DNA from: Chitinophaga pinensis | GTDB lineage: Bacteria; Bacteroidota; Bacteroidia; Chitinophagales; Chitinophagaceae | Length of the DNA: 64,000 nucleotides | Direction: 5' to 3' | Assembly: GCA_943372255.1 (NCBI GenBank) | Contig: CALRXZ020000001.1 | Coordinates: forward strand, 9,191 to 73,190 | Part shown: positions 22,094-53,941 of the stretch, piece by piece | How positions within the stretch are numbered: position 1 is the first letter of the stretch | Layout: every line of letters starts with the position of its first letter | Made by a program: the position numbers and the translations under genes | The notes under the pieces: model-generated | What the model was told of the DNA's origin: nothing | The model's database searches: none | The model's input: only the letters and a program-made list of their open reading frames with translations

Positions 22094-23659
22094 TTAGTAT
22101 TTCGCTGGCTGATCTGCTTTAGGCAAAGTCTTCTTAATAAAATTGCGCAAGCTTTGGTTGCTGCTTTCTAGGTCTGGTTTGCGCAGGTACATCATGTGTC
22201 CGCTTCTATATCCTTCCCAACTAAGTCTGTCTTTTAGCCTGCCACTGGGGTCCATTTGCCACATGCTGTATTTGGCGTTGAAATAATCACAAGCACCATC
22301 GTAATAACCAGATTGAATCAGCACATGCAAGTAGGGGTTTTCTGCCATGGCAAGTCTTAGGTTCTCACCACTTTTGTCTCCTGTTCTATCCCAAGGGCTT
22401 ACTGGTCCAAACATATAGTAGCGCAAATCGGTTTTGTATTTTAACTCATCCCTCAAATAGATATTAATGGCTGGTGTAAAAGAATGTAGCCAAGAAGTGA
22501 GTTCTGAATTATAATCAGGTGCTTCACCTGCGTCTTTTCCATCAATGCCTTTGTATCTTGAATCCAAACGGCCAACGGTATAGCCTTTATCGCGCAGCAA
22601 TTCCTTCCAAAACAAATTGGTAGAAACATTCAGGTTGTTTTGTAGCCATACTTTTTCTGCAATGCCAGAATAGCGAGCCATTTTAGCGGCTATCTCTTTG
22701 CGTTTTGCATCTTCTAAAAATCCTCCTTTTGAAATAGCCGGAATCAGTTCATTAATGGTAAACTGTTCTACTTCTGGTAGCATGGCAGTTAAGTCCTTTG
22801 TCTGCAAATCTGAAGGAAGTGCTTTATGGTACCAAGCTGTTGCTGCATAATAAGGCAACCTAAGTGCAATGTCTACAGGTCCTTCTCTCTCAATCCCCAA
22901 ATTGGTGGGCGATACCAAGATCACGCCATTCAAATACATCCAATGCGTATTCTGTAATTCTAAGGCCATGGCCGATACCCTGCCTGTGCCATAACTCTCT
23001 CCAATCAAATATTTTGGCGATGCCCATCTGTTCATTCTAGATACAAATGTGTTTACCCATTCTGAGAGATACTTTACATCGGCCTTAACGCCAAAAAAGC
23101 GGGTAGTAGGAATGTCTTTACTCACGGGTCTAGAAAATCCGGTGTTCACTGGGTCTACATACACAATATCGGCAACGTCTAAAATGGATTGTGAGTTATC
23201 GTGTAAGCCATAGGGTTGTACTGGATACCCCTCGTCATCTACATTTAATACCCTGGGTCCGGTATAACCCAATTCCATCCATACAGATGGTGTGCCTGGG
23301 CCGCCATTAAATGAAATCACCAAGGGTCTGCTGGCGCGATCTTTAACATCGGATCTTTCATAGTAAGTAAAAAATACTCCAGCCTGTACTTTACCATCTT
23401 CATCCCAAACCGGCATCATGCCTGTTACTGTTTTGTATGGAACCTTGATACCCTTGATGCTTACTTCATGCTCACTGCTTACAGTTTGGTCTGGGTTAAA
23501 AGGAATATTGTAACTAGCCGTTTTAGCGTCCTGCGCTGCTGCAGGGGCTGCTGGTGCTGCAGTTCCGGAATTTGGAGCGCCACCATTGCCTCTTTGGCCT
23601 TGGGCTATTGCTGTTAATACAAGTGAAAGGCTTAGAGCCGATAAGAGCATTTTTCTCAT
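22094..23659 (-). CDS. Peptidase S10 (serine carboxypeptidase) family, secreted
   Basis: Signal peptide plus a low-complexity linker. Motifs are SFNGGPGTPS and the catalytic-Ser motif LIGESYGTGRV. Confidence 0.8.
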   Translation of the reverse strand: MRKMLLSALSLSLVLTAIAQGQRGNGGAPNSGTAAPAAPAAAQDAKTASYNIPFNPDQTVSSEHEVSIKGIKVPYKTVTGMMPVWDEDGKVQAGVFFTYYERSDVKDRASRPLVISFNGGPGTPSVWMELGYTGPRVLNVDDEGYPVQPYGLHDNSQSILDVADIVYVDPVNTGFSRPVSKDIPTTRFFGVKADVKYLSEWVNTFVSRMNRWASPKYLIGESYGTGRVSAMALELQNTHWMYLNGVILVSPTNLGIEREGPVDIALRLPYYAATAWYHKALPSDLQTKDLTAMLPEVEQFTINELIPAISKGGFLEDAKRKEIAAKMARYSGIAEKVWLQNNLNVSTNLFWKELLRDKGYTVGRLDSRYKGIDGKDAGEAPDYNSELTSWLHSFTPAINIYLRDELKYKTDLRYYMFGPVSPWDRTGDKSGENLRLAMAENPYLHVLIQSGYYDGACDYFNAKYSMWQMDPSGRLKDRLSWEGYRSGHMMYLRKPDLESSNQSLRNFIKKTLPKADQPAKY

Positions 23660-24505: not shown

Positions 24506-25663
24506 TCAAAAATGAAGTTTTTGTTTTAAAGATTTGAATCGGAAGACCACTAGTTCAATCCAAAACTGTTTAAATATTTTGCGGATAAGTGCGTGATCAT
24601 GAAAAGGAATAAATCTCCAATACCCCTTAGTATTAAAAACCCATGTTAAAAGGCCTTTGAAATCTTTATTCCAAGAAATTCTGCGAATGTCTTTATAGAA
24701 TAATGCTACTTCTATTTGAGGCTTATTCATGGTATAGCCTTTGAATCCAGATATATAATCACCATTGACTATCCTTTTTACAGCAGCAACAAAATCATTG
24801 TTTGTTAGAAATTTTGAATAAACCATCCATGAATTGGGTCTTGGATCTATTTCTATTAAATGATATTTTCCTGATTGCTTGTCATGGATGTAGAGAATAT
24901 TTGCAAATGCATTTAATCCCAGTTTATTACCCATGTCTATTAAAAGTGGGGCAATGTCATTATTCTGATAGAATATTCTTTTTGTTGTATAACTGAATTC
25001 ATTTGAACCATATTGCAATGCATTGGAACTATGATAGTGTAGTAAATTTCCTTTGTAAAAAAGGGCCTCCACAAAAATAACTTCCCCTACAATATATTCT
25101 TGCAATAAAATATCCTGTTTTGTATCTGACTTTGCTAAATGATTTTGAAGCTCTTCAAAATTATAACATACCGCCATATTAACCCCTCCATAACTCAGGT
25201 CTTGTTTGCTTACAAGAGGAAATTGTAAATCTGAAATTAAAGATTCAAGGTTATTTTGGTGCTGGTAAACAGCATACCCTGGGGTGTCTATTCCGTTATT
25301 CAAGCAAAAATTTGACAAACCTTTTTTTGAACTAAGTGAGCTTTTGTTTTGAATTAATTCTACAGGCAAAATCATGGCACACAAGCCCTGATTATCAATT
25401 GCGTCTGCCACATGTTTGATTAATAAGTCATCAGCCAGAATAACCCATTGGTAGTGATTGTTTTTTACATGATCCACCAATCTGTTGACATAGCCTTCAT
25501 CTGCTTTTCCACTATCAAATAAATTGTCTACATAATCAGTTTTTGTGAGCCAAGATAATTCTCCACAAAACGCATCAACTGTACAACCTGCTTTTTTTAG
25601 CATGGAAGGGATTTCTGAAATGGTATCCCAATTATCAAAACAGGCTATTAGAACTTTGAACAT
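24506..25663 (-). CDS. ATP-grasp domain protein (unknown ligase)
   Basis: The likely start is MFKVLIACFDNW at 25663, and the track's upstream extension looks spurious. It has a pre-ATP-grasp Rossmann-like N-terminus, LLQEYIVGE, and HLIEIDPRPNSW (E-x-N/D-P-R ATP-grasp motif). Confidence 0.6.
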   Translation of the reverse strand: MFKVLIACFDNWDTISEIPSMLKKAGCTVDAFCGELSWLTKTDYVDNLFDSGKADEGYVNRLVDHVKNNHYQWVILADDLLIKHVADAIDNQGLCAMILPVELIQNKSSLSSKKGLSNFCLNNGIDTPGYAVYQHQNNLESLISDLQFPLVSKQDLSYGGVNMAVCYNFEELQNHLAKSDTKQDILLQEYIVGEVIFVEALFYKGNLLHYHSSNALQYGSNEFSYTTKRIFYQNNDIAPLLIDMGNKLGLNAFANILYIHDKQSGKYHLIEIDPRPNSWMVYSKFLTNNDFVAAVKRIVNGDYISGFKGYTMNKPQIEVALFYKDIRRISWNKDFKGLLTWVFNTKGYWRFIPFHDHALIRKIFKQFWIELVVFRFKSLKQKLHF

Positions 25664-25727
25664 TGTATATAATAACTTAGAATATGAAGTTAAGGCAATG
25701 TTTGTACATTTGATACAAAGAATTATC

Positions 25728-26228
25728 ATGAAAAAGATTGCTGGAATCATAGCCATATTCATCCTATTTGACTTCTCTGTAGAGGCCCAGTGTAAAATTT
25801 CACAGGTTAAAAATGCAGATGGATCTTTATTTCTTTCAACAGAAAATAGCCTTATGTACCAGACTTCTAAAAAGAAATTGGTAGAAAGATTGGCTACTGA
25901 TAATGAACACTATTTTCTAGAAATTCTGCCTACTCCTTTTTTGCCAAAACCAGCGGGTTCAAAGGTCAAAAAAGACCTAACTGTAACGTTGAGCAATAAA
26001 AAGACCTATACCCTGAAGCACTTTGATTCTAGGTATTTAGACAAGGATAGCAGTTTCTCTTTACTATACTTATTCAATAGTAAAGACATTCCAGATTTTA
26101 AGCAATATAAAATCAATAGCATTGTCTTAAATGATGGCACTGCAGAGAATGCCACCTATAAATTGGTATTGCATCCAGATGCTATTCAAAAGCAGTTGGC
26201 TTGTTTTAATGACAACAAAAAGAAATAG
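25728..26228 (+). CDS. Hypothetical secreted protein
   Basis: The start MKKIAGIIAIFILFDFSVEAQ (signal peptide) is at 25728. The longer track ORF from 25545 overlaps the divergent ATP-grasp gene and is unlikely to be translated. Confidence 0.45.
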   Translation: MKKIAGIIAIFILFDFSVEAQCKISQVKNADGSLFLSTENSLMYQTSKKKLVERLATDNEHYFLEILPTPFLPKPAGSKVKKDLTVTLSNKKTYTLKHFDSRYLDKDSSFSLLYLFNSKDIPDFKQYKINSIVLNDGTAENATYKLVLHPDAIQKQLACFNDNKKK

Positions 26229-28261: not shown

Positions 28262-30970
28262 CTAGTCTTGACCAAACAATTGGTTAAACAGCATTTTATA
28301 AGTACCATGTGTTTGTCCTCTGAAAGTTATTTCTGGCCCATAGACAAAGAGTTTGCCCTTGCCAACTTTGGCACTAAATCCAGCAACCCCATCTAACAAA
28401 TAAGACTGTCCAAACGCCCATCCACTTCTCAAGGTTTTTTCTGATGCATACCAAGCAAGCGGTGTCACTTCTTCTCTTGATATGGCATCTGGTTGAATTT
28501 TAAATACGGGGCTAGCGCTAAAATAAACATCGGCCTTTTGGCCCAATCCCCAGTTGGCTTTTTGGCGCGTATCAATGCTTACTTGCATCACGGATCCTGG
28601 AATATAAAATTTCTCTCCAGGTAAAGCTTTCTCTTTTCCAGCCACCATTTCTACCAAGGCATTGCGTACAGGAAGTTTTAAATGATAAGCCAGATTGGAA
28701 GAGCTACCAATAGTAACAATAGTACCTCCTGCCTCTAAGAATTCTTTGAGCGCAGGAATAGATTTAGCAGGGGTGATTCTACCCAATTGTGAGTGGAATT
28801 CTGCAGGTATATCTTCTGTTTTGGGTTCTCTTCCCTCAAATCCGCCAAAGCCTCCTCCAGGGCCACCGGCTCCCTCTGTTCTAAGAGCAGGAATGGCACC
28901 TCCTACAAACACAATTACGTCATACTTATTTTTCAATGAGCCTCCATCAATTTCTTTGGCATAGATAAGATTGAATGGGAAATGATGCTGCTCTAAAATC
29001 CATCTAAGCCAGCCTGATGGCATTGATCCGCCATAATTATCCCAAAGTGCAATGCGCTTGGCACTAAGATTGCTTGCTTTTGCTGGGGCATCAGAAGCTT
29101 TTAAGATAACCCCATTAGTACTTGCTGCTTTTTCTAAAATAGGAGTGCTTGTAACACTATTGGCTACATAAAACTGATCGGCTGTTTTTGTTACTGGCAC
29201 ATCCGCTTTCAAAAGGTCATTCAACAAAATAAAACTAGCATTATCCTTAGTAGAAAAACTAAATCCGGTAGTGGTAGCCGTCTTTTCAATGGCTCCTTTT
29301 GCAGTTTGAACACTGCCATAAGGAATGGTTTCAAATGGGCCATTAAAACTATTTAATACCCTTGTGAATTGAATACCCATGGTATAAGCTGGAGTCCATC
29401 CTGCTGCATCATAGGGGCGTACTGGCGGGCCTCCTGGATACTGAAAATCATTGGGGTGATCCTGTGGCTCAAACATATCTATTACGTGTGCTCTAAATGC
29501 CTGATTGGTTTTAACAATATAGGATCCAGCTGGATAATTCTGACCTTCTACACTAAAATCACTGGTGGCTTTTTCAACTTTAATACCACTATTGATTAAA
29601 ATATTGGCAAAGGCTGTGGCCGATGTGGTTTGATTTGCTGGAATAATATAACCCCTAGCATCGCGCAGCTCTGGTTTCCTATATATTTTATTGTAATACT
29701 CTAATGGTAGGGTATCTCCACGCATTTCTTTTTTATCTTCTTTATACAAATCAGTGACCATTTCAACCTTATTGGGAGAAAGTGTCCAATGGTCTGTATT
29801 GCCAGCTGCAATAGCGTTTTTCCCCATGGTATAAATATTCATCAGAAGTTCGTCCTTATATCTTGCTGCATAATTAAGTACTGCGTAGTTGAGTGAAAGC
29901 GAGTAGTCAATAGAATTTTTAAAATACCATTGCTGGGGTGCAATTGGATAAGGTGTACCACTATTGGGTATTAACCTATTGGGTACAAAATTAATCTTGG
30001 ACGGTGTTGGACTACCAATGATTTCGGTTAAAAGACCAATAATATTATGGTAATAGGCCGTTGTTCTCAAACCGCCATTCCACCAAGTACTATATACAGA
30101 ACCACTTTTCATGGTGTAACCGGGTTTGCCCTCTGCATTTAGTCTGCTACTCATAGCAGCACCCATGGCATCAATTCCTGTAATCAATAATGGGTCATAT
30201 ACATAGTTAAATGGATCTCTATAAGGAGGCCCTGCTACTACGGTACCTGCTGGCCCTGTTTGGTGGTGGTTATACAAGATCTGAGGCATCCACTCAATAT
30301 ATTGTTGACGGCTCATATTGCGTGATTCACTCATGTTCATCATGTAGAAATCACGGTTGTTGTCATGCCCAATATATTTTTGGTAGAGCCTGGGAAGGTT
30401 ATCTGTTGTACGTTTCAGCGTATCTGCATTGCGCATATACCAATTTGACACCAATTCTTGTCCGTCTGGGTTGGCGTGTACAAATAGGATGATGGTAGAT
30501 TTTAAGATTCTATTGGTTTCTTCATCTGTTCTAGTAATAATTTGATAGAGGGTTTCTATCCATTGATGTATGCCCACTACTTCGGTTGCATGTAATCCAC
30601 CATCAATCCAAACAACAGCTTTTCCTTCTGCAGCCAATGTTTTGGCATCAGCATCACTTAGGCCTTCTGCCCTAGCCATGCGTTGTGAGATAGACTTGTA
30701 TTTGTCTAGTTTGGCCAAATTGGCTGGATCAGAAACTACCACCATGTACTGGCTTCTTCCTTCTTCCGTATTCCCAATACTCATCAGTTTCATTTTTTTT
30801 GAAACTGCCGCCAATTTTTTCAGGTAAGCTTCTGTTTGTGTAAATGTGGCTAAATGATAGTTGTCTCCAATAGCAAAACCAAAATGTGATTTTGGATTGG
30901 GAACGTTCTGGGCCATGGTAGTTGACATGGTTACCGTGAATAGCAAAAAGAATAAAGCAATCCTACGCAT
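28262..30970 (-). CDS. M14-family zinc carboxypeptidase, large secreted multidomain form
   Basis: 902 aa with a signal peptide. It has the zinc-binding HATE (GGLHATEVVG) and the second ligand region VHANPDG. Confidence 0.8.
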   Translation of the reverse strand: MRRIALFFLLFTVTMSTTMAQNVPNPKSHFGFAIGDNYHLATFTQTEAYLKKLAAVSKKMKLMSIGNTEEGRSQYMVVVSDPANLAKLDKYKSISQRMARAEGLSDADAKTLAAEGKAVVWIDGGLHATEVVGIHQWIETLYQIITRTDEETNRILKSTIILFVHANPDGQELVSNWYMRNADTLKRTTDNLPRLYQKYIGHDNNRDFYMMNMSESRNMSRQQYIEWMPQILYNHHQTGPAGTVVAGPPYRDPFNYVYDPLLITGIDAMGAAMSSRLNAEGKPGYTMKSGSVYSTWWNGGLRTTAYYHNIIGLLTEIIGSPTPSKINFVPNRLIPNSGTPYPIAPQQWYFKNSIDYSLSLNYAVLNYAARYKDELLMNIYTMGKNAIAAGNTDHWTLSPNKVEMVTDLYKEDKKEMRGDTLPLEYYNKIYRKPELRDARGYIIPANQTTSATAFANILINSGIKVEKATSDFSVEGQNYPAGSYIVKTNQAFRAHVIDMFEPQDHPNDFQYPGGPPVRPYDAAGWTPAYTMGIQFTRVLNSFNGPFETIPYGSVQTAKGAIEKTATTTGFSFSTKDNASFILLNDLLKADVPVTKTADQFYVANSVTSTPILEKAASTNGVILKASDAPAKASNLSAKRIALWDNYGGSMPSGWLRWILEQHHFPFNLIYAKEIDGGSLKNKYDVIVFVGGAIPALRTEGAGGPGGGFGGFEGREPKTEDIPAEFHSQLGRITPAKSIPALKEFLEAGGTIVTIGSSSNLAYHLKLPVRNALVEMVAGKEKALPGEKFYIPGSVMQVSIDTRQKANWGLGQKADVYFSASPVFKIQPDAISREEVTPLAWYASEKTLRSGWAFGQSYLLDGVAGFSAKVGKGKLFVYGPEITFRGQTHGTYKMLFNQLFGQD

Positions 30971-31205: not shown

Positions 31206-33821
31206 ATGAATATGGCAATTTTTGATCAAACGCCTATCTATCAATTGATTAGCAACCAAGCATTGTTGCATCCCAATAAAGTAGCCATTAAGTACAATGG
31301 AAAATCCATTACTTATGCTGAATTGGTTAAATCCGCTAATCAGTTTGCCAGCTTTATGGCTCAGAAAGCTGTTAAAAGAAATGAGATTGTGGTAGTTGCC
31401 ATGGATAGGTCTATTGAAATGGTAATAGCTATGATTGGGTTATTAAAATCCGGGATTACTTATTTGCCTATTTTACCCGATTATCCAAAAGATAGGCTCA
31501 ACTATATTTTAGAAAATAGCAACACGGGTCATATTTTATCTACTTATAAGTTCAAGGAACAATACGGTAAATATGCGGGTGCCATTTTTGTAGAAGAATT
31601 CTTAGAAGTTAAAGATAGTTTAGAAGAAAAACCTGATGATGGCATTGATCATTCAGACGATACTGCTTTTGCTTTATATACTTCAGGTTCAACTGGTTTA
31701 CCAAAAGGTGTAGAGATTGCACAGAAAAGTTTTTTAAACCACTTGCTGAGTATGCAATTGGTTCCAGGCATCACTAAGGATGATATTGTTTTAAACATTA
31801 CCACCATCACTTTTGATATTGCCCAATTAGAATTATTCCTGCCGTTGATTAGCGGTGCTCAGTTGTTTATTACTGATATGGATGAGTCCAGAGATGGTAG
31901 ATTATTATTAGAAACTATTGAGAAAGAACAAATTACCATTGTACAAGCAACACCATTTAACTGGCAAATTTTAATTGAATCAGGTTGGCAGAAAAAAATG
32001 CCAATTAAGGCACTGTGTGGTGGAGAGGCATTGAGCATGGACTTGGCTAAAAAACTTTGTTCAAGAGTACAGGAGTTGTGGAATGTATACGGTCCAACAG
32101 AAGCAACTATTTGGGCAACAGTGAAACAAATTCATTCAACAGACCACATCATTACTATTGGAAAACCAATGCATAATGTAGACGTTTATATACTCAATGA
32201 ACAGTTACAAGAAATGCCGGTGGATGAAGTGGGAGAAATTTATATTTCAGGCATTCAAGTAGGTAAGGGTTATATTAATAGACCTGAACTAACTGAAAAA
32301 GCATTTTTAAATGACCCTATTTCTAAAGATCCTGGCACAAGAATGTATAAAACCGGGGATCTAGGAAAGAGATTACCCAATGGAGAAATTCAATGTTTAG
32401 GAAGAATTGATCACCAAATCAAGATTAGAGGTAATAGGGTTGAGACAGAGGAAATAGAATTTCAAATTAAACAATACGATCAAGTTAAAAACGCCATAGT
32501 TGTTGGTCACAAAGATCATGTAGACAATATGCGTTTGGTAGCATACATAGAATTAGACAACCCAATTCCTGTTAATCAAGAACCTGAATTATTCAAAGCA
32601 ATTAAAGCATCCTTAGGTGCTACGTTGCCAGAGTATATGATTCCTACAGACTATATGGTTATTCAGGAAGTACCACTCATGTCTAATGGAAAAGTGAATA
32701 GAAAGGCTTTACCAGCACCAGTGCTTCAAGTGATTGACAGAGAAATTATTGCTCCTGAAACAACCCTTGAAAACCTGATGTTAACCATTTGGTCTAGAAA
32801 TTTAGGGCTGGAGAAAATTAGTGTGGAGGACAATTTCTTTGACCTAGGTGGGAATTCTTTAATAGCAACCAAGATCATGTTGCAGGTAGAACAGGAAACT
32901 GGTAAAAGATTACCTAATGCAACACTTTTCCAATACCAATCTATCAAAGATCTTTGTAAGGTTATTGAAAATAATATAGCTGAGAGTCCTTATAAAGTAT
33001 TGGTGCCAATGAAACCAACTGGTTCCAAAATGCCCATCTATATTGTACATGCCATTGGTTTGAACTTGATGTTCTTACGCAATGTTGTATTGTTGATGGA
33101 TGAAGATCAACCGGTATATGGTTTGCAAGCGCTTGGGTTAAATGGAATAGATGAGCCATTAGATAATATGGAAGCAATTGCTAGTTTTTACAACAATGAA
33201 ATCTTATTACATAATCCAAACGGTCCTTATATCATTGCCGGTTATTCCTTTGGGGGATATATTGCTTGGGAAATGGTGCGTCAATTAAAAGCAATGGGAA
33301 AAGATGTTCGCATGTTGGCAATGATGGATACCAATATTCAAGAACCATTATACCAGAAACCATTGCTAGAGCGATTTAGTAAAAAACTATTCCGCCAATG
33401 GAAAAAATTAATTTTTAGACTGGGTACTAGTTTCACATATCCAGCCGATACTTTGGATTATTTGAAAACTATTTATACCCATAGGTACAAGAAATTGCAA
33501 GATCAAGATTATGATTCTGAAAATATGCCCGTTTTCATGATGCGGATTGCAGACAAAATGGAACACGCATATTATCATTATTATTTTAAACCTCAGCACA
33601 TAAAAATTGATCAATTTATTTCTGAAAAAAGGATGTTCTTCATAGACGATCCAAAATATATGGGTTGGAAGAAGTTAGCCTTAGATGGAATTGAACAACA
33701 CCATATTCCTGGCGATCATAAAGACATGTTGTTCCCTCCCAATGACAAATTTTTTGCTCAGACCTTGCAAAAGAAGTTAAATCAGCTAAATCAGGAGCTT
33801 GCAAACCAGCAAACAACCTAA
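31206..33821 (+). CDS. Stand-alone NRPS-like enzyme: adenylation (glycine-like code) - peptidyl carrier - thioesterase (A-T-TE), no condensation domain
   Basis: All A-domain core motifs are present (LYTSGSTGLPKGV, FDIAQ, NVYGPTE, YKTGDL, GRIDHQIKIRGNRVE, NGKVNRK). The carrier motif is DNFFDLGGNSLI. The TE has GYSFGG, MMDT and GDH. Confidence 0.9.
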   Translation: MNMAIFDQTPIYQLISNQALLHPNKVAIKYNGKSITYAELVKSANQFASFMAQKAVKRNEIVVVAMDRSIEMVIAMIGLLKSGITYLPILPDYPKDRLNYILENSNTGHILSTYKFKEQYGKYAGAIFVEEFLEVKDSLEEKPDDGIDHSDDTAFALYTSGSTGLPKGVEIAQKSFLNHLLSMQLVPGITKDDIVLNITTITFDIAQLELFLPLISGAQLFITDMDESRDGRLLLETIEKEQITIVQATPFNWQILIESGWQKKMPIKALCGGEALSMDLAKKLCSRVQELWNVYGPTEATIWATVKQIHSTDHIITIGKPMHNVDVYILNEQLQEMPVDEVGEIYISGIQVGKGYINRPELTEKAFLNDPISKDPGTRMYKTGDLGKRLPNGEIQCLGRIDHQIKIRGNRVETEEIEFQIKQYDQVKNAIVVGHKDHVDNMRLVAYIELDNPIPVNQEPELFKAIKASLGATLPEYMIPTDYMVIQEVPLMSNGKVNRKALPAPVLQVIDREIIAPETTLENLMLTIWSRNLGLEKISVEDNFFDLGGNSLIATKIMLQVEQETGKRLPNATLFQYQSIKDLCKVIENNIAESPYKVLVPMKPTGSKMPIYIVHAIGLNLMFLRNVVLLMDEDQPVYGLQALGLNGIDEPLDNMEAIASFYNNEILLHNPNGPYIIAGYSFGGYIAWEMVRQLKAMGKDVRMLAMMDTNIQEPLYQKPLLERFSKKLFRQWKKLIFRLGTSFTYPADTLDYLKTIYTHRYKKLQDQDYDSENMPVFMMRIADKMEHAYYHYYFKPQHIKIDQFISEKRMFFIDDPKYMGWKKLALDGIEQHHIPGDHKDMLFPPNDKFFAQTLQKKLNQLNQELANQQTT

Positions 33822-34764: not shown

Positions 34765-34866
34765 ATGAAAAAGCTGTCCTATTTTCTACAGCAAATGCTA
34801 GTGGATCTAAGTATCCCCTTTTTGTTAAATGGATATTTGGGTTACAAATTCCATAAAATCCATTAA
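34765..34866 (+). CDS. Candidate 33-aa upstream small ORF coupled to the LpxH-family gene
   Basis: MKKLSYFLQQMLVDLSIPFLLNGYLGYKFHKIH. Its TAA stop (34864-34866) shares one base with the ATG at 34866 (TAATG). It is too short for the ORF track and there is no homology evidence. Confidence 0.2.
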   Translation: MKKLSYFLQQMLVDLSIPFLLNGYLGYKFHKIH

Positions 34867-35714
34867 TGGAGCAGAAAAGAAGAAAGCTTGATATACTTGT
34901 CTTATCAGACATACATCTTGGCACTTATGGCTGCCACGCAAAAGAACTACTCCATTACTTGAAGTCTGTAAAACCCAAAACCGTTATTTTAAACGGCGAT
35001 ATTATTGATATATGGCAATTCAGTAAAAGGTACTGGCCAAAATCACACATGAAAGTGGTAAAACACTTGATGCACTGGATGAGTAAGGGTGTAAAAATCT
35101 ATTATATCCCTGGCAACCATGATGAGATGCTTAGAAAATTCACGGGATGGCAATTGGGAAGTTTGAAAATAGTCAATAAGGTTGTACTGGATTTACCCAA
35201 CGATGGAAAAGCATGGTTTTTTCATGGAGATGTTTTTGATGTAACCATGCAGCATAGTAAGTGGTTGGCAAAATTGGGTGCTGTTGGATACGATACTTTG
35301 ATTTTAATTAATCGTTTGGTAAACTTTATTTCGGAAAGAGTTTTTGGGAAAGGCAAAATTTCATTGTCTAAAAAAATTAAAAACAGTGTAAAGTCAGCTG
35401 TTAAGTTCATCAATAATTTTGAGGAAACAGCTGCTGATATTGGTATTAGTAATCAATACAAGTACGTGGTTTGCGGCCATATTCACCAGCCGGAAATGAG
35501 AAAGATTGAAAATCAAGAAGGTGAAATCATGTATCTCAATAGCGGTGACTGGATTGAAAATCTTACTTCTCTGGAATATGTAAATGGTCAATGGACTATT
35601 TATAAGTTTAATCATGAACAATGGAAACAGGAGATAGAAACAGAAGAAGAGGAACCAGATAATCAACAGCTCTTTGACAGCTTGTTGGAAGAATTCAATT
35701 TAATGAAACAGTAA
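34866..35714 (+). CDS. LpxH-family metallophosphoesterase (UDP-2,3-diacylglucosamine pyrophosphatase-like)
   Basis: The calcineurin-like motifs occur in order: LSDIHLG, NGDIIDIW, GNHDE, FHGD and CGHIH. The size and N-terminus match the LpxH/COG2908 family. Confidence 0.8.
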   Translation: MEQKRRKLDILVLSDIHLGTYGCHAKELLHYLKSVKPKTVILNGDIIDIWQFSKRYWPKSHMKVVKHLMHWMSKGVKIYYIPGNHDEMLRKFTGWQLGSLKIVNKVVLDLPNDGKAWFFHGDVFDVTMQHSKWLAKLGAVGYDTLILINRLVNFISERVFGKGKISLSKKIKNSVKSAVKFINNFEETAADIGISNQYKYVVCGHIHQPEMRKIENQEGEIMYLNSGDWIENLTSLEYVNGQWTIYKFNHEQWKQEIETEEEEPDNQQLFDSLLEEFNLMKQ

Positions 35715-36805
35715 TGAGAATTTTATACGCCATTCAAGGAACTGGAAACGGTCATGTTAGCAGGGCAAGGGATATTATTCCATATTTACAGGAAAAGGGA
35801 TCAGTAGACCTTTTAATTAGCGGAATTCAGTCTGATGTTAATCTGCCTTATGAAATCAAGTATCAATTTAAGGGCTTAAGTTTCATCTTTGGTAAGAAGG
35901 GCGGAATAGACCTATTAGATACCTATAGAAAAAGCAATTTAAAAAGATTGTATCAAGAGATTCAATCGCTACCGGTTGAAGATTATGACTTGGTAATCAG
36001 TGATTTTGAACCAGTTAGTTCTTGGGCATGTAAATTGAAAAATAAACCATGTATTGGATTAAGTCATCAATCTGCAGTAATCAATAAGAAATCTCCCAAG
36101 CCTAAAAAAACAGATATGGTTGGCAAGGCCGTTCTGAATAATTATGCTCCAGTAGACATTTCTTATGGATTTCATTTTAAACAATACGATAAACAAATAT
36201 TCACACCTGTAATCAGAAGTCAAATTCGTCAGGCTAGTCCTGAAGACGCCGGACACTATACGGTATATCTACCGGCTTATAATGACGAGAGATTGTTGAA
36301 AGTCTTGACACAAATACCATTGGTAAAATGGCAGGTATTCAGTAAGCATACTAAAAAAGATTATAAGGTTAAAAATGTGCATATTCAACCCATCAATAAT
36401 GAGTTATTTGTTGAGAGTATGGTTAGTTGTACTGGGATACTTTGCGGAGCCGGATTTGAAACTCCAGCAGAGGCTTTGTTCCTGAAAAAAAAGCTAATGG
36501 TCATTCCTATGAAGGGTCAGTATGAGCAACACTGTAATGCAGCGGCGCTAAAAGAATTGGGTGTGCCCGTGATTAAATCATTAAAGCAAAAACATATTGG
36601 ATCAATAGAACAATGGATCAGACTTGAAAAGAAAATAATACTTGATTTTCCTGATCAAACGGAGCAAATTATTAATATTCTGGTAAAGGCAAATTATCAG
36701 AAATCAAGCGTTTCTCTCAAGGTACTGGGTCAGGGAATAAGTACTTGGAAACAATTCAAGCACCGCAGTTTTGGGAATATTCTCAGGCAACTTACCGAAC
36801 AATAG
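35714..36805 (+). CDS. GT-B glycosyltransferase of the MJ1255/TIGR00661 type (GT1/GT28-like)
   Basis: The N-terminus MRILYAIQGTGNGHVSRARDIIPYL is the family hallmark. The C-terminal half has GAGFETPAEAL, a nucleotide-sugar-binding motif. TAATG overlap with the LpxH-family gene. Confidence 0.75.
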   Translation: MRILYAIQGTGNGHVSRARDIIPYLQEKGSVDLLISGIQSDVNLPYEIKYQFKGLSFIFGKKGGIDLLDTYRKSNLKRLYQEIQSLPVEDYDLVISDFEPVSSWACKLKNKPCIGLSHQSAVINKKSPKPKKTDMVGKAVLNNYAPVDISYGFHFKQYDKQIFTPVIRSQIRQASPEDAGHYTVYLPAYNDERLLKVLTQIPLVKWQVFSKHTKKDYKVKNVHIQPINNELFVESMVSCTGILCGAGFETPAEALFLKKKLMVIPMKGQYEQHCNAAALKELGVPVIKSLKQKHIGSIEQWIRLEKKIILDFPDQTEQIINILVKANYQKSSVSLKVLGQGISTWKQFKHRSFGNILRQLTEQ

Positions 36806-36807
36806 AA

Positions 36808-38163
36808 ATGAATATTTCAGTAAAGGATTTTGGACCCAATTTTCACTGGGGAGTATCAACAGCCGCGTATCAAATAGAAGGTGCTCATGATAAATATGGG
36901 AAAGGGGCTTCAATCTGGGACCAATTTGTATTGAAAAAAAAGAAGATTCTAAATAATCATTCAGGAGAAATAGCATGCGATTTTTATCATAGATATGCTA
37001 ATGATTTGACCTTGGTTAAGAGACTGAATATTCCTAATTACAGGTTTTCCATTTCATGGTCTAGAATTCTTCCAAAGGGCATTGGCCAAGTAAACCAAGC
37101 AGGGATAGACTATTATCATCGTGTTATAGATTTTTGTATTGAATTAGGCATTGAGCCTTGGGTAACCTTATATCATTGGGATTTGCCCCAATGTTTGCAA
37201 GACAAAGGTGGCTGGACCAATAGAGATATCATACAATGGTTTAGTGTTTTTGTAGAAACCTGCGTTAAACATTTTGGGTCAAAAGTGAAGCATTGGATGG
37301 TTTTAAATGAACCCATGGTTTTTACAGGTGCAGGATACTTTTTGGGGGTGCACGCGCCTGGTAAGCGGGGACTAAATAATTTTTTGGCCGCAGCTCATCA
37401 TGCGTCACTTTGTCAAAGTGAGGGAGGGAGAATTTTAAAGTCAATTCAATCCAATCTAAAAGTAGGAACTACATTTTCTTACTCCCATATAGAGCCTTTA
37501 TTAGAAAGCAGCGAGAAAGATTGTAAAGCAGCTATAAAAGTAGATGCCCTTTTGAATAGACTTTTTCTAGAACCTTTATTGGGTTTGGGTTATCCAACAA
37601 AAGAACTGAAATTACTATCTAGGATTGAAAAATTCATGAAGCAACATGATGAAAACCTTTTACCGTTTTCTATGGATTTTATAGGGCTTCAAAATTATAC
37701 CAGAGAAAAAGTATCTCATTCTTACCTAATTCCCTTCTTACAGGCTAAAATTATAAAAGCTAATAAACGAGGTGTGCCAAGTACCCTAATGAATTGGGAA
37801 GTTCATCCTCCCAGTATTTTTAATGCACTTAAACGTTATGATTCATATGCTCAAATCAAAGAGATTATTGTAACAGAAAATGGAGCTTCTTTTGAAGATC
37901 AATTAGTAAACAATCAAGTCAATGATACTCAACGAACCTTGTATTTGCAGGAACATATAGAACAAGTTAGTTTAGCCAAGCAAATGGGTGTTCGAGTTAA
38001 TGGGTATTTTGTTTGGACACTCATGGATAATTTTGAATGGGCAGAAGGATTTCATCCCCGTTTTGGTTTGGTGCATGTTGATTTTATGACACAGAAACGA
38101 ACCATTAAAATGTCTGGAAATTGGTACAAACAATTTTTGTCTAATCTTACTGGGCTAGAATAA
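36808..38163 (+). CDS. Glycoside hydrolase family 1 (beta-glucosidase type)
   Basis: The likely start is MNISVKDFGPNFHWGVSTAAYQIEGA at 36808, 2 nt after the upstream stop. The acid/base motif is LNEP and the nucleophile motif is VTENG. Confidence 0.9.
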   Translation: MNISVKDFGPNFHWGVSTAAYQIEGAHDKYGKGASIWDQFVLKKKKILNNHSGEIACDFYHRYANDLTLVKRLNIPNYRFSISWSRILPKGIGQVNQAGIDYYHRVIDFCIELGIEPWVTLYHWDLPQCLQDKGGWTNRDIIQWFSVFVETCVKHFGSKVKHWMVLNEPMVFTGAGYFLGVHAPGKRGLNNFLAAAHHASLCQSEGGRILKSIQSNLKVGTTFSYSHIEPLLESSEKDCKAAIKVDALLNRLFLEPLLGLGYPTKELKLLSRIEKFMKQHDENLLPFSMDFIGLQNYTREKVSHSYLIPFLQAKIIKANKRGVPSTLMNWEVHPPSIFNALKRYDSYAQIKEIIVTENGASFEDQLVNNQVNDTQRTLYLQEHIEQVSLAKQMGVRVNGYFVWTLMDNFEWAEGFHPRFGLVHVDFMTQKRTIKMSGNWYKQFLSNLTGLE

Positions 38164-45878: not shown

Positions 45879-47519
45879 ATGGGAGTGTATTTTCCTTATA
45901 GTAAGAAAATAGTATTACTAGTAATTCAAGTACTAGTATTTGTTAATTTGTTTGCACAACAAAATTTATTAACAAGCTCTAACTTGCCTATTGTGGTTAT
46001 TAATACCGGTGGACAGACCATTTTGGATGATCCTAAAATAACGGCAGATCTAGGAATTATTTACAATGGCACTGGACAGAGAAATGCTTTGACTGATGCA
46101 TTTAACCATTACAATGGGAAAATTGGTATTGAAATAAGGGGTCAGTCATCGCAGATGTTTCCTATGAAATCATATAGTATTGAATTGCGTTTGGCGGATG
46201 GTTCAAGTAATAATCAATCATTATTGGGAATGCCATCAGAAAGCGACTGGGTATTATATGCGCCATATACAGACAAAACTTTGATGCGTAATGTACTTGC
46301 TTATGGCATTAGTAATAGTTTGGGAAGGTATGCTGCGCGATGTAGGTATGTTGAATTAATACTAGATAATGATTATAAGGGTTTCTATGTATTAATGGAA
46401 AAAATCAAACCTGGAAGAGTTGGTATTGTGAAAATGAAAAAATCGGATATTGATGGTGATGCTTTGACGGGTGGATATATTTTTAGTTTGGACAAACAAC
46501 CCAATGCTTGGTATTCTTCTTTTCCTGCACTAAAGTCAATGAATCAAAGCTTTCCCCATTTCTCATATGTTTATCCAAAAGAGACTGATATAGTTCAACA
46601 ACAAAAAACCTATATCAAAAAGCAAGTAGATGATTTTGAAGCGGCATTGAATAGTAGCAATTTTCAAGACCCTTTGATTGGTGTAAGAAAATATGCAGAC
46701 TTGAATTCATTTATGGATTATTTTATTGTCAATGAAATTAGTAGAAATGTTGATGGCTATAGACTAAGTAGTTATTTTAATAAAGATAGAGATAGCAAAA
46801 ATTCCTTAATAAAGGCGGGCCCTGTATGGGATTATGATTTGGCATTTAGAAACGCCAATTATTGTAATGGAAGCAATGTGAATGGATGGGCATTTCAATT
46901 CAATTATGTCTGTCCTGGTGATGGCGCTGGTCTTGTACCGTTTTGGTGGGAAAAATTGTTTACAGATAGTAACTATGTTAAAGATTTGCATAAGCGGTGG
47001 ACTCAGCAAAGAACTACTGTATTAAAAACAGCTAATTTGAATCAAGTAATTGACTCAATTGTTCAATTAACCGATGAAGCAAGACAAAGGCATTTTAAAC
47101 GTTGGCCCATTTTGGGTCAATATATTTGGCCAAACCCCAATCCTATACCAAATTCATATACTGAAGAAATAAGCTATTTGAAAGTATGGCTAGATCAAAG
47201 ATTATTATGGATTGATCAAAATTTACCCAAACAAATTAAACCTAATTGGCCTGAGTCTAATACAGGAACAATGCAGATAAATGTTTTTCCCAATCCTATC
47301 AATAGCCGTTCTGTAATTCAGATTTTAGCAAAAGAAGAGCAAGAGATAAGTGTGGAATTATTTCAAGTAAATGGTAAGTTAGTTTTTTCTACAAAGAAAT
47401 TAATGGTCGCAGGCTTGAATCAAATTGACCAGAATTTGTCTTATTTATCTTCTGGAGTTTATTTATTAGTAATTAAAAATGGATCGGGTGAAAAAATAAT
47501 TACCAAACTAATTAAGTGA
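45879..47519 (+). CDS. CotH kinase-family protein with T9SS C-terminal sorting domain
   Basis: The CotH-type core includes LPIVVINTGGQTILDDPKI, GQSSQMFPMKSYSIEL and VNEISRNVDGYRLSSY. The C-terminal roughly 80 aa (VFPNPINSRSVIQI...GVYLLVIKNG) is a T9SS type A sorting domain. Confidence 0.8.
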   Translation: MGVYFPYSKKIVLLVIQVLVFVNLFAQQNLLTSSNLPIVVINTGGQTILDDPKITADLGIIYNGTGQRNALTDAFNHYNGKIGIEIRGQSSQMFPMKSYSIELRLADGSSNNQSLLGMPSESDWVLYAPYTDKTLMRNVLAYGISNSLGRYAARCRYVELILDNDYKGFYVLMEKIKPGRVGIVKMKKSDIDGDALTGGYIFSLDKQPNAWYSSFPALKSMNQSFPHFSYVYPKETDIVQQQKTYIKKQVDDFEAALNSSNFQDPLIGVRKYADLNSFMDYFIVNEISRNVDGYRLSSYFNKDRDSKNSLIKAGPVWDYDLAFRNANYCNGSNVNGWAFQFNYVCPGDGAGLVPFWWEKLFTDSNYVKDLHKRWTQQRTTVLKTANLNQVIDSIVQLTDEARQRHFKRWPILGQYIWPNPNPIPNSYTEEISYLKVWLDQRLLWIDQNLPKQIKPNWPESNTGTMQINVFPNPINSRSVIQILAKEEQEISVELFQVNGKLVFSTKKLMVAGLNQIDQNLSYLSSGVYLLVIKNGSGEKIITKLIK

Positions 47520-51139: not shown

Positions 51140-53941
51140 ATGAGAATTTTTTACTGCTTATTGGCAATGATTATCTGTTCAGAAGCCATTTCCCAACCCT
51201 TTGCTGCCTTGCCTTCTAGTCCTGCTGCCGTTACCAAAACGGGTAGATTGGGTCTGCGATATACATTTGTCAGCAGCACTTTATTACAACCGGCTATAGA
51301 CAACGAGCCCAATCACCGAGTAAAAGTGGAAAATATTGGTCCTAACGCTAAGACCAATGTTAGGGTCAGTTACACGGGATTAAATGCAGATAGTTCTGTG
51401 CCTACTTTAAGTGGTGGCGGTTTTGCAGCATTCCCAAATGGTGGTTCAGTAAACTTGGCTTCAAGAGATACTACCATTGTTCAAGGATGGTCAAGTGGAT
51501 GGAGAGAGTGTAGTTGTATCAATGATGGCAATAACAATAAATTAGTCAGATTCATATTTGCCTACGATTCTACCTTTTATGGTCCGGATGGTTTACCCGA
51601 TGGTACCATCGCGCTAGCAGATACCATTATCCAACCCTTGGTGATTGTTCAAAGATCTCAATCACAACAAACACAAATTGCTGTCATTCAAACTTCTGCC
51701 ACACAAAGTTTAAGAGGACAATTTATTATACCTGGATATATAAAAAGTCTTGTTTCGCTAAACACAGTATCCATTGCAACTAATGGACTAACCTGGGCCT
51801 TTTATCCCAATACCCCTTCCTCTATTACAACAGTTGATAGTATCGGAAATAGATATTATAGATTTAATATCACGGTAGACCCTAGATCTGATTATAGAAT
51901 TGAAGCAAAGTTCAATTCTACAAATACTTCTTTATTAGTACCTGCAACAACCATTGTAGTGCCAAATTCCGCATCAAATGATACATTAAGAGCAACGGTT
52001 CTGCCCTATGGAAAAGCATCGTTTACCATTGACTCTGTGATCACGCATGAAACAGAAGTAGGATTTTGGAGAACGATTTTTGCGCCTGGCGATAGCACAA
52101 TTACGGTATTCCCCGGCCAAGAAAACTGGTTCGGAGCTACTAATACTGAACGCAATGCCAATAGGGCCAAATCAAAAATTATCAAGTACAAAGCAGACTG
52201 GGCGGGCTTTGGAACCAAGCTTTGGGAATTTGCTTTGCCTACAGAATCTTGGGGTGGAGGCGTGAGTAAAGATGGTAAACATGTAGTTTATATGATTAAC
52301 CAAAAAGGTAGAGAAAGTGGATTAGAAAATGATCCAACAGTAGATTGGGTGGGTGTTTTGGATGGAACAACAGGACAAAAAAAATGGGGTTTAAGAGGTA
52401 ACCAACAAATACAAGAAGGGTTAGAAGTTGCCATTTCCTCAACTGGAACTTATATAGCCATGGGAACTACTGGAAGTGGTAGATTTTCTGTCTATAAAAA
52501 CAATGGTAATAGTGGAACACTTCTATGGAGTAATCCAGCAGACTTTGCAAATGGCAATAAGGATATTGGACAAATTAGGAAGATTGTTTTTTCTGACAAT
52601 GACCAATATGTATATGCTGGTTGTGGAGACATGTATTTGAGAAAGTATAAAATTGCAGACAGTAGTTTGGTTTGGAAGGCCTATATAGGTGGATGGCCAT
52701 TTGTAAATGGATTAGTCATTGCCAACGGTTACGTGATTACTGGAACCAAGTCAAAAGATAGAACCGTAATTAGAGATTCCGATGGTGCAGTACAATACTT
52801 TGCAGGTTCATTTGGATATGATGCAACTGTAGATAGTTCATTTACTGGTCCGGTATTTGGCTTTGGACCAATTGTAACCGAAAGAACATCGGGCAGGGCC
52901 ATTGCAAGTGTAGGAAGTAATTCTGTGAAGCATAGTATTCTCAATGGAAGTTTTGTTTTAAGTGCTGATAGAACGGTAGATGTGTATTCCCGTTATGGTG
53001 GCAACAGTTTGGCTAATCGTGCTACCTATATGGGAGCAGGATCAGGAGAACAATCACAATCCGGATGGGCAAGTGCATCAGGAGATAGAATAGTTGTTGC
53101 TGCAAGAGATTTGACAACAGGTGTTTTTCCTAGAAAGACTGCAGCCTTTTATAAAATCAATAGAAGTATTAATAGATATCCAACCATGGATTCTATTGGC
53201 GCAAAATCTTTTACAAAATTTGATACGCTAAGGTTAAAAATTAGCTATCGCGATTTCAACGATTATAATACCGCAAATACGCAATTGTCTTTAACAGCAA
53301 CTGCAGAAACTGCCGATCTAAAAACCATTGTGCGGGGCGATTCTGTGATAGTTTATGGGGCTTCAGGTTTTAATGGACTAGCAGCCATCACCGTGTCAAT
53401 TGCAGAAACAGCAACCACTGAAAAATGGACGGTTTCTGAGCGAATTCCTGTTACGGTTAATTGCAATACTATAGCTACACCTACCATTACTAAAGACATT
53501 GACAACTTCTTAGTATCATCATCATTGTATAATAATACTTGGTACAAAGACAATGTGCTTATGACTGATACTACTCAGAAAATCAAACCCATATCCAGTG
53601 GTAATTATTCTGTAAAAATAGTTCAAGGTGGTTGTAGCTCAACCCTATCTTCGGCTACCAGTTATATTCCAACTGCCCTAGTTAATTTAAGTGCAGGCCA
53701 ATTTATTAAAACCTTTCCAAACCCGGTACATAGTGAATTACATATTCAGTATCAGTTAAATGGTATCACCACAATGAAAGCGCTTTTGTATGATGTGTCT
53801 GGTAAATTGATATTGCAGCAGAACAGTCTTTCCAATGGTGGTAGTTTGCCCATGGGAAATCTTATCAGGGGTTCATATCTTTTAAGATTATATGACAAAA
53901 ATGGAAAACTGTTGCACACAGAAATATTAATCAAGGATTGA
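51140..53941 (+). CDS. Large T9SS-secreted protein with beta-propeller-like central region and T9SS type A sorting domain
   Basis: 933 aa with a signal peptide. The central repeats have a PQQ/WD-like pattern (KKWG..., LLWSN..., LVWKAY...). The C-terminal FPNPVHSELHIQY...GSYLLRLYDKNGK is a Por secretion tail. Confidence 0.7.
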   Translation: MRIFYCLLAMIICSEAISQPFAALPSSPAAVTKTGRLGLRYTFVSSTLLQPAIDNEPNHRVKVENIGPNAKTNVRVSYTGLNADSSVPTLSGGGFAAFPNGGSVNLASRDTTIVQGWSSGWRECSCINDGNNNKLVRFIFAYDSTFYGPDGLPDGTIALADTIIQPLVIVQRSQSQQTQIAVIQTSATQSLRGQFIIPGYIKSLVSLNTVSIATNGLTWAFYPNTPSSITTVDSIGNRYYRFNITVDPRSDYRIEAKFNSTNTSLLVPATTIVVPNSASNDTLRATVLPYGKASFTIDSVITHETEVGFWRTIFAPGDSTITVFPGQENWFGATNTERNANRAKSKIIKYKADWAGFGTKLWEFALPTESWGGGVSKDGKHVVYMINQKGRESGLENDPTVDWVGVLDGTTGQKKWGLRGNQQIQEGLEVAISSTGTYIAMGTTGSGRFSVYKNNGNSGTLLWSNPADFANGNKDIGQIRKIVFSDNDQYVYAGCGDMYLRKYKIADSSLVWKAYIGGWPFVNGLVIANGYVITGTKSKDRTVIRDSDGAVQYFAGSFGYDATVDSSFTGPVFGFGPIVTERTSGRAIASVGSNSVKHSILNGSFVLSADRTVDVYSRYGGNSLANRATYMGAGSGEQSQSGWASASGDRIVVAARDLTTGVFPRKTAAFYKINRSINRYPTMDSIGAKSFTKFDTLRLKISYRDFNDYNTANTQLSLTATAETADLKTIVRGDSVIVYGASGFNGLAAITVSIAETATTEKWTVSERIPVTVNCNTIATPTITKDIDNFLVSSSLYNNTWYKDNVLMTDTTQKIKPISSGNYSVKIVQGGCSSTLSSATSYIPTALVNLSAGQFIKTFPNPVHSELHIQYQLNGITTMKALLYDVSGKLILQQNSLSNGGSLPMGNLIRGSYLLRLYDKNGKLLHTEILIKD

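Follow-up and report, generated by a model that had tools for sequence, protein, structure and literature searches.

A glycine-type adenylation-carrier-thioesterase enzyme encoded next to a GT14 glycosyltransferase in Chitinophaga pinensis: a candidate glycyl-transfer cassette

Introduction

Among described systems, AB3403 (A. baumannii ABBFA_003403) is by homology the closest to the enzyme that we analyze here. It is a single-module nonribosomal peptide synthetase (NRPS) for glycine in which condensation (C), adenylation (A), carrier (T) and thioesterase (TE) domains are arranged as C-A-T-TE, and it is the sole chain in the PDB that aligns over the A, T and TE parts of our protein (query residues 11-856, E 9.5e-122). 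Our protein is an A-T-TE enzyme encoded in a 64,000-nucleotide stretch of Chitinophaga pinensis DNA (contig CALRXZ020000001.1, positions 9,191 to 73,190; hereafter the window, whose own numbering is used throughout). It is essentially AB3403 without the N-terminal C domain, which in AB3403 acylates the amine of glycine. Its genomic partners also differ: its gene is coupled to that of a glycosyltransferase (GT) of family GT14, and this arrangement suggests that the two may form a cassette for the transfer of glycine to a sugar.

Amino acids on bacterial surface sugars alter charge, antigenicity and resistance to cationic peptides, and the enzymes for most of these decorations are not known. Carrier-dependent aminoacylation of envelope glycoconjugates as such has been described: in the AlmE/AlmF/AlmG and DltABCD systems, a small amino acid is activated by an ANL-family enzyme, loaded onto a carrier and esterified to an envelope glycoconjugate (PMC4278540). 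These systems use separate A and carrier proteins together with a membrane acyltransferase, whereas A, T and TE are fused in the window protein, which is soluble and has a GT as its partner; this fused form would be new. The A domain belongs to the NRPS type and scored below the cut-offs of the DltA models (307.6 versus 476, and 295 versus 560), and no DltB/AlmG-type membrane acyltransferase was present among the Pfam-annotated neighbours. Judged by its sequence, the A-T-TE enzyme is not a member of the Dlt/Alm families.

Other single modules that lack a C domain, and in which the terminal domain sets the product, are the fungal A-T-TE NRPS-like enzymes, among them synthetases that dimerise aryl-pyruvates, and Ebony of Drosophila, which has an amine-selecting domain after A and T. 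Alpha-keto or aryl acids are the substrates of the fungal enzymes, which do not possess the amino-binding Asp235, whereas the window protein keeps its equivalent (D204) along with K496 (Lys517) and a glycine pocket; the C-terminal domain of Ebony is not a TE. The TE domain of Pks13 from Mycobacterium tuberculosis transfers its acyl group to trehalose instead of water. It shares with the TE of the window protein the type I fold, a Ser-Asp-His triad and a helical lid (E about 1e-14, TM score about 0.66), and differs from it in sequence (about 17-18% identity) and in its substrate, a very long mycolic chain delivered by a polyketide synthase (PKS). On the modelled fold, Pks13 can serve as a precedent for the mechanism but does not testify to a shared function, the similarity being no greater than that to hydrolytic or cyclising TEs.

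In the phylum to which the window organism belongs, VimA and VimE of Porphyromonas gingivalis and Tannerella forsythia act in the Wbp/Vim pathway. This pathway makes an N-seryl or N-glycyl amino sugar, and the free amine of this sugar anchors type IX secretion system (T9SS) cargo to anionic lipopolysaccharide (A-LPS); VimA is annotated as a putative N-acetyltransferase and is not NRPS-like (PMC7468200). Wbp and Vim genes were not identified in the window, where no direct search for VimA was made. A link between this pathway and our cassette would be purely by analogy, in that the kind of product matches our proposal.

Results

The original prediction, which was made from the letters of the DNA, described an A-T-TE enzyme without a C domain. 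An uninterrupted open reading frame (ORF) and matches in Pfam and NCBIfam bear out this architecture (Table 1), and all of the motifs that had been quoted are found in the 871-residue translation. The ten core motifs of the A domain (A1-A10) are all readable, and the NCBIfam model for amino-acid adenylation domains (TIGR01733) was matched with 391 bits against a cut-off of 317. The A10 lysine K496 (nt 32691-32693), which is the equivalent of GrsA K517, closes the AMP-binding_C subdomain. The phosphopantetheine site is Ser551 in a DLGGNSL motif (nt 32856-32858), and the triad of the TE is formed by Ser681 in GYSFGG (nt 33246-33248), Asp708 (nt 33327-33329) and His838 (nt 33717-33719); both serines lie at the coordinates that had been claimed for them. 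The Pfam Thioesterase match proper (PF00975) covers residues 635-842 (58.2 bits versus a cut-off of 26.4). Ser551, Ser681, Asp708 and His838 are retained without exception in 120/120 homologues, and the A-T-TE feature is far beyond chance.

Table 1. Positions of the A-T-TE gene, its domains and the genes downstream of it in the window.
Feature	Position	Strand	Evidence
A-T-TE NRPS-like enzyme gene, 871 aa, ATG start	31206..33821	+	Uninterrupted ORF and translation, Pfam, NCBIfam
Adenylation N-terminal core, residues 17-356	31254..32273	+	PF00501 (AMP-binding), E 1e-74
Adenylation C-terminal subdomain, residues 416-496	32451..32693	+	PF13193 (AMP-binding_C), NGKVNRK motif
Carrier (T/PCP) domain, residues 526-586	32781..32963	+	PF00550, 53.8 bits (cut-off 20.8)
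Type I thioesterase-fold domain, residues 596-860	32991..33785	+	PF00975, triad, AlphaFold2 model, Foldseek
GT14 ("Core-2/I-branching", "Branch") glycosyltransferase, 280 aa	33822..34664	+	PF02485, 6EJ7, motifs
LpxH-like metallophosphoesterase, MJ1255-family glycosyltransferase, GH1 beta-glucosidase	34866..38163	+	Pfam, NCBIfam

An AlphaFold2 model of the TE domain reached a predicted local distance difference test (pLDDT) score of 91.7 and shows a type I thioesterase whose lid is formed by two helices. With Foldseek, this model was matched to TEs of NRPSs and PKSs at a probability of 1.0. The model confirms the TE as a predicted competent acyl-enzyme catalyst. A profile search showed that large NRPS and PKS proteins also end in this TE subtype, which is therefore no context-specific marker.

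Motif-anchored extraction, for which FDxxxxE, the ITxxQ strand, GGE, YGPTE and NGK served as anchors, returned D204, I205, L208, Q247, L270, G272, V294, I302, W303 and K496 as the specificity residues. They spell DILQLGVIWK, the glycine-type code that the original prediction had assigned by hand, and its claim of a gap-free spacing between the equivalents of Asp235 and residue 278 holds as well, the distance being exactly 43 residues. The equivalents of Asp235 (D204 in FDIAQLE) and of Lys517 (K496 in SNGKVNRK) are both present. When the pocket segment was compared with the PDB, AB3403 (4ZXH, E 6e-29) and DhbF-A1 (5U89, E 2e-26) were the best matches. The nine-residue pockets read from HMMER alignments are DILQLGVVW in AB3403, DILQLGLIW in DhbF-A1 and DILQLGVIW in the window protein, and each of the nine compared residues recurs at the corresponding position of AB3403 or of DhbF-A1. 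Both proteins (4ZXH/4ZXI for AB3403) are listed in a table of a 2024 review as crystallised with glycine ligands (PMC11253843). Codes of the DI(L/E)Q type occur in 120/120 homologues. The code of the window protein is based on the motif anchors together with the alignments to these two structures, and the prediction that its A domain activates glycine is well supported by sequence.

Pfam detected no condensation domain (PF00668) in the 871-residue protein, whose N-terminus extends only 16 residues ahead of the A domain. A C-domain partner encoded close by had been named in advance as grounds for giving up the original prediction; when seven C domains of C-A-T-TE relatives were used as tblastn queries, no such partner appeared in the 64-kb window (best E 0.19). 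Homology searches with proteins of related loci found no second A, T or TE domain in the window, and no NRPS partner was seen at the loci of relatives with 65-67% identity. The accompanying statement that an enzyme of this type cannot make a peptide was slightly too strong, since a TE can oligomerise; the absence of the C domain itself stands.

The TAA stop codon of the A-T-TE gene abuts the ATG start codon of the GT14 gene with zero spacer. The GT14 protein matched PF02485 (E 1.6e-19; 70.9 bits versus a cut-off of 23.4) and human xylosyltransferase-1 (6EJ7, E 8e-8). Its motifs SGQDYP, DE (D207-E208) and ARKF (A260-R261-K262-F263), whose catalytic roles we take to be those of the corresponding motifs in C2GnT and XT1, are conserved over 13 aligned orthologues, with most positions invariant. 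The A-T-TE/GT14 pair is the sole neighbourhood common to the window and to the relatives with 65-67% identity (loci L001 and L003), where the two-gene cassette is surrounded by unrelated metabolic genes. No other neighbourhood is common to the window and its relatives over the range of 43-67% identity. The pair is also found in four Mucilaginibacter loci (L002, L006, L010 and L059); at L002 (M. corticis), it is located among genes for GT2, GT4, Wzx, Bac_transf and a phosphopantetheinyl transferase (PPTase).

Judged by sequence, the A-T-TE protein is a member of a large Bacteroidota family. Metagenomes hold homologues with 93%, 89% and 87% identity, a metagenome-assembled genome of a Chitinophagaceae member holds one with 66%, and many with 45-52% occur in Mucilaginibacter, Pedobacter, Puia and Spirosoma; C-A-T-TE relatives are about 1,340-1,440 residues long and about 45% identical. 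Scanning one genome per species with the TE-domain alignment gave at least 513 confirmed relatives. In the best 80 of these loci, we called and clustered the ORFs and annotated the recurrent neighbours with Pfam. In the C-less A-T-TE proteins of this set, a GT gene is immediately adjacent in 37/41 cases, versus 2/32 for C-A-T-TE proteins, when full-length genes are counted. The C-less proteins fall into three clades that are accompanied by three types of GT, namely GT14, GT2 inside Wzc/Wzy/Wzx clusters, and a GT-B-like protein.

Four contexts recur in this survey. In one of them, to which the window and the six loci named above belong, the A-T-TE gene is preceded or followed by the GT14 Branch gene. 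About 25 Mucilaginibacter loci have the order Wzc-like, Wzy, hexapeptide acyltransferase, Wzx, GT4, GT2, A-T-TE, GT2, GT2, which by its gene content is a putative Wzx/Wzy polysaccharide cluster. About 30 loci from Spirosoma, Cytophagales and Mucilaginibacter encode a FAAL-KS-AT-ACP-aminotransferase megasynthase that is followed by a C-A-T-TE protein, often with an Sfp-type PPTase, Wzx, GTs and T9SS-tail proteins close by. The fourth context consists of a YbaK-type deacylase, DUF6875, A-T-TE and the GT-B-like gene. In a neighbour-joining tree (without bootstrap), the GT14-linked proteins group together, beside the clade of the fourth context, and the A-T-TE proteins of exopolysaccharide (EPS) clusters are sister to the PKS-linked C-A-T-TE proteins. 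The tree would imply repeated loss or gain of the C domain. Among cultivable carriers, M. corticis MAH-19 and M. myungsuensis KCTC 22746 have the GT14-linked form and M. flavus CECT 7857 has the EPS-cluster form. Full-text searching retrieved no description of the A-T-TE/GT family, which does not prove that no such paper exists.

The clade of the fourth context (L011, L012, L029, L032, L035 and L036; Pedobacter and Mucilaginibacter) carries the A-T-TE code DIEQFGMICK. Immediately upstream of the A-T-TE gene, a YbaK/ProX-type aminoacyl-tRNA editing-domain protein (PF04073) and DUF6875 are conserved and divergently transcribed, and the GT-B-like gene lies downstream. By homology, the editing-domain protein could proofread mis-loaded amino acids.

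On contig NZ_JAUFPS010000012.1 of M. flavus, two of the surveyed loci overlap (L070, 18511-39320; L072, 32787-53578) and appear to form a supercluster of about 35 kb, which is also represented by L052 and L066. Its first part comprises the FAAL-KS-AT-ACP-aminotransferase megasynthase, a C-A-T-TE protein (Gly-type), an Sfp-type PPTase, three small genes and a Wzc-like gene; Wzy, a hexapeptide acyltransferase, Wzx, GT4, GT2, an A-T-TE protein (Gly-type), GT2 and a GT21-like GT2 follow. From its gene content, it looks like a hybrid lipo-amino-acid/Wzx-Wzy polysaccharide locus with two putative glycine-loading enzymes. We found no description of a hybrid locus of this type.

In the window, 235 bp of intergenic DNA separate the A-T-TE gene from an upstream, divergently transcribed M14 peptidase gene, and the genes around the cassette are of kinds that are ordinary in Bacteroidota (housekeeping, carbohydrate and T9SS cargo). 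Scans for sigma-70 promoters and terminators performed no better than on shuffled sequence and are ill-suited to Bacteroidota; they were set aside. A gap of 200 bp lies between the GT14 gene and the LpxH-like gene. The LpxH-like, MJ1255-GT and GH1 genes are syntenic only in the relatives with 89-93% identity (L083 and L084) and are missing at L001, at L003 and at every other locus; they were rejected as conserved parts of the cassette and probably lie outside of it. As mechanically called, the GH1 ORF (36745-38163, + strand, TTG start, 472 aa) overlaps the MJ1255 gene by ~60 nt. In the 89-93% relatives, GH1 has 451 residues and begins right after the GT stop codon; its true start in the window is therefore probably an internal ATG near 36808. 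The 89% relative L084 carries an extra gene for a 383-residue protein without a Pfam match between the M14 peptidase and A-T-TE genes (8700-9851 of L084). Neither the window nor L083 has this gene, which points to a recent insertion or deletion on the promoter-proximal side of the cassette. Peptide-ligase and carboxypeptidase genes are clustered locally upstream of the cassette: an ATP-grasp protein (RimK-like, weak match; 24506-25762, - strand) and an S10 serine carboxypeptidase-like protein (22094-23659, - strand), both in the region ~6-9 kb upstream, and the M14 carboxypeptidase (28262-30970).

Discussion

We propose that the A-T-TE enzyme is a cytoplasmic, carrier-dependent glycyl-transfer machine whose TE hands glycine to a sugar acceptor, with the GT14 enzyme as its partner, and we put the chances of this proposal at about even. 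In such a scheme, the A domain would adenylate glycine, which would then be thioesterified onto the phosphopantetheine arm of Ser551, an arm that a PPTase encoded outside the window would provide. The glycyl group would pass to Ser681 of the TE, and the TE, working as an acyltransferase and not as a hydrolase, would deliver it to a sugar, at a hydroxyl or an amino group. As acceptor, one may envisage a nucleotide-sugar, a lipid-linked oligosaccharide or a glycolipid that is made or extended by the co-transcribed GT14 enzyme; a surface glycoconjugate would in this way come to bear an O- or N-glycyl sugar whose amine is free.

We infer from genomic context and logic that glycine is the true substrate, that the TE catalyses the transfer and that a sugar is the acceptor. 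Since hydrolysis of Gly-S-T would amount to a futile ATP-consuming cycle, the TE must act as a transferase or an oligomerase. The consistent setting among GT and polysaccharide genes points to the hydroxyl or amino function of a sugar as the most likely nucleophile. Inspection of all the proteins revealed no signal peptides or membrane segments, so that the acceptor is to be expected in the cytoplasm, as a nucleotide sugar or as a lipid-linked intermediate. N-linked amino acids, glycine included, are present on amino sugars in many O-antigens (PMC10609480), and N-glycyl and N-seryl amino sugars serve as T9SS linking sugars in Bacteroidota (PMC7468200). Aminoacyl transfer to a non-peptide acceptor was the preferred interpretation of the original prediction; it is favoured by the TAA-ATG coupling to the GT14 gene and by the frequent adjacency of GT genes, and gains real support from them.

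Several observations weigh against this proposal. The fold search fails to tell transferases apart from hydrolases and cyclases: when the AlphaFold2 model is used as query, Foldseek ranks 7CRN (a cyclising/epimerising TE), AB3403-TE, Pks13-TE and the TE of fatty acid synthase about equally, with TM scores of about 0.67. A profile of the TE subtype retrieved 6,355 representatives at E<=1e-30, many of which are large multimodular synthetases. Many of the 41 C-less loci come from closely related Mucilaginibacter, and the independent support behind the adjacency count amounts to roughly three clades. Queries with proteins from related loci found no PPTase, Wzx, Wzy, priming transferase, amino-sugar genes, GT2 pair, FdtA or DegT in the window, and the target glycan cannot be named. 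No characterised member of the A-T-TE family was found. When metagenomes were scanned in the reciprocal direction with the Branch alignment, an A-T-TE gene lay within 6 kb of only 7/80 Branch homologues (35-55% identity).

The other Branch homologues of this reciprocal scan are part of similar EPS-type clusters, which contain Wzy, GT4, Wzx and the GT2 pair described above, or are situated beside FdtA and a DegT aminotransferase, which are the makers of 3-amino-3,6-dideoxyhexoses. This low co-occurrence, together with the EPS and amino-sugar contexts, indicates that the GT14 family is a general glycan-assembly enzyme. We accordingly dropped the idea of GT14 as a dedicated partner in an obligate two-protein family; the A-T-TE enzyme looks like an optional tailoring add-on to glycan loci that contain GT14 and GT2.

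In the same metagenomes, genes for FdtA (a WxcM-like 3,4-ketoisomerase) and a DegT/EryC1 aminotransferase repeatedly follow the Branch/GT14 gene, often without an obvious N-acetyltransferase (L091, L093, L098, L100, L101, L137-L139, L143, L157, L162 and L165). At L137-L139 and L143, an A-T-TE or C-A-T-TE gene and a PPTase gene are present within the same locus. In organisms with this gene set, the arrangement hints at the amine of the amino sugar as a candidate glycyl acceptor.

A different role would fall to the enzyme if it were a loading or terminal module that acts in trans, its Gly-S-T being used by a condensation or tailoring enzyme encoded elsewhere in the genome, for instance in a pathway for lipo-amino-acids akin to the one in PKS-linked C-A-T-TE relatives; GT14 would then act later or be unrelated. 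The relatives with about 45% identity do possess an N-terminal C domain and follow the FAAL-KS-AT-ACP-aminotransferase megasynthase, M. flavus encodes a C-A-T-TE and an A-T-TE protein on overlapping loci of a single contig (L070 and L072), and a system without a PPTase in the window already relies on distant genes. For the same reason, priming of another pathway, the other option of the original prediction, may still apply: the remaining parts of that pathway must lie elsewhere. Yet no C, KS or other carrier-dependent gene was found within about 31 kb to the left and 30 kb to the right, and none at the loci of the 65-67% relatives. A fused TE is, moreover, the mark of a releasing enzyme and not of a donor module, and the sole conserved neighbour is a glycosyltransferase. 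We therefore consider a role in trans unlikely. The same degree of doubt attaches to a self-contained small-molecule synthase whose TE joins glycyl units into a diketopiperazine or oligoglycine, or attaches them, as Ebony would, to an amine or alcohol that is small and soluble, with no glycan involved. TEs are known to oligomerise and cyclise, cyclising and dimerising TEs are among the Foldseek matches, the TE subtype is common in ordinary NRPSs, and the unrelated metabolic genes around the cassette at L001 and L003 would fit such a synthase. It leaves unexplained, however, why three C-less clades stand beside three GT families or inside Wzx/Wzy clusters, and why the stop and start codons of the A-T-TE and GT14 genes abut.

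The glycyl group might also end up on a lipid: lipid A or a membrane lipid hydroxyl would be aminoacylated in the way of AlmEFG or MprF, to lower the negative charge of the surface. AlmE/F/G set a precedent, in which DltA-like glycine activation leads to the modification of V. cholerae lipid A (PMC4278540), and AlmE (4OXI) is tabulated under Gly and LPS (lipopolysaccharide) modification (PMC11253843). The LpxH-like phosphoesterase and MJ1255 GT genes lie downstream on the same strand in the window and in the 89-93% relatives, and a GT21-like GT2 accompanies many relatives. Against a lipid acceptor, the LpxH-like and MJ1255 genes are not kept with A-T-TE past these close relatives, no membrane acyltransferase of the AlmG, DltB or MprF type is adjacent, the A-T-TE protein lacks a membrane domain, and the conserved partners are glycosyltransferases; we regard such an acceptor as quite improbable.

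Should the proposed glycyl transfer to sugars be correct, the A-T-TE/GT arrangement would provide a genetic marker for glycine-bearing glycans, with at least 513 related loci in bacterial assemblies. It would constitute a third architecture beside Dlt and Alm, in which activation, carriage and transfer are fused, and would be the second case, after Pks13, of a TE domain that acylates a sugar. Many of the "NRPS-like" matches in Bacteroidota would then be cell-envelope tailoring genes and not natural-product synthetases, which calls for caution in genome mining.

A more far-reaching idea, to which we assign only a slim chance, is that the A-T-TE/GT cassettes and the FAAL-PKS/C-A-T-TE/Wzx-Wzy superclusters of Mucilaginibacter and Spirosoma represent an unrecognised free-amine glycyl route to surface glycans in environmental Bacteroidota, and that the glycyl sugar is a T9SS linking sugar. 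Such a route would be carrier-dependent and independent of both tRNA and VimA. The glycyl sugar would be the nucleophile that becomes amide-bonded to T9SS cargo, and the route would be a non-orthologous replacement of the Wbp/Vim pathway of Porphyromonas and Tannerella.

The window contains two genes for T9SS cargo that ends in a Por_Secre_tail domain, a CotH-kinase-domain protein (45879-47519, + strand) and a 933-residue protein (51140-53941, + strand), from which we conclude that the window organism possesses a type IX secretion system. In the Spirosoma-type loci (for example L019, L022, L027 and L028), a Por_Secre_tail protein (about 783 residues) and a CHU_C protein (about 335 residues) are conserved in the PKS/C-A-T-TE/Wzx/GT cluster, and the T9SS-tail genes lie about 1-9 kb downstream of the C-A-T-TE gene.

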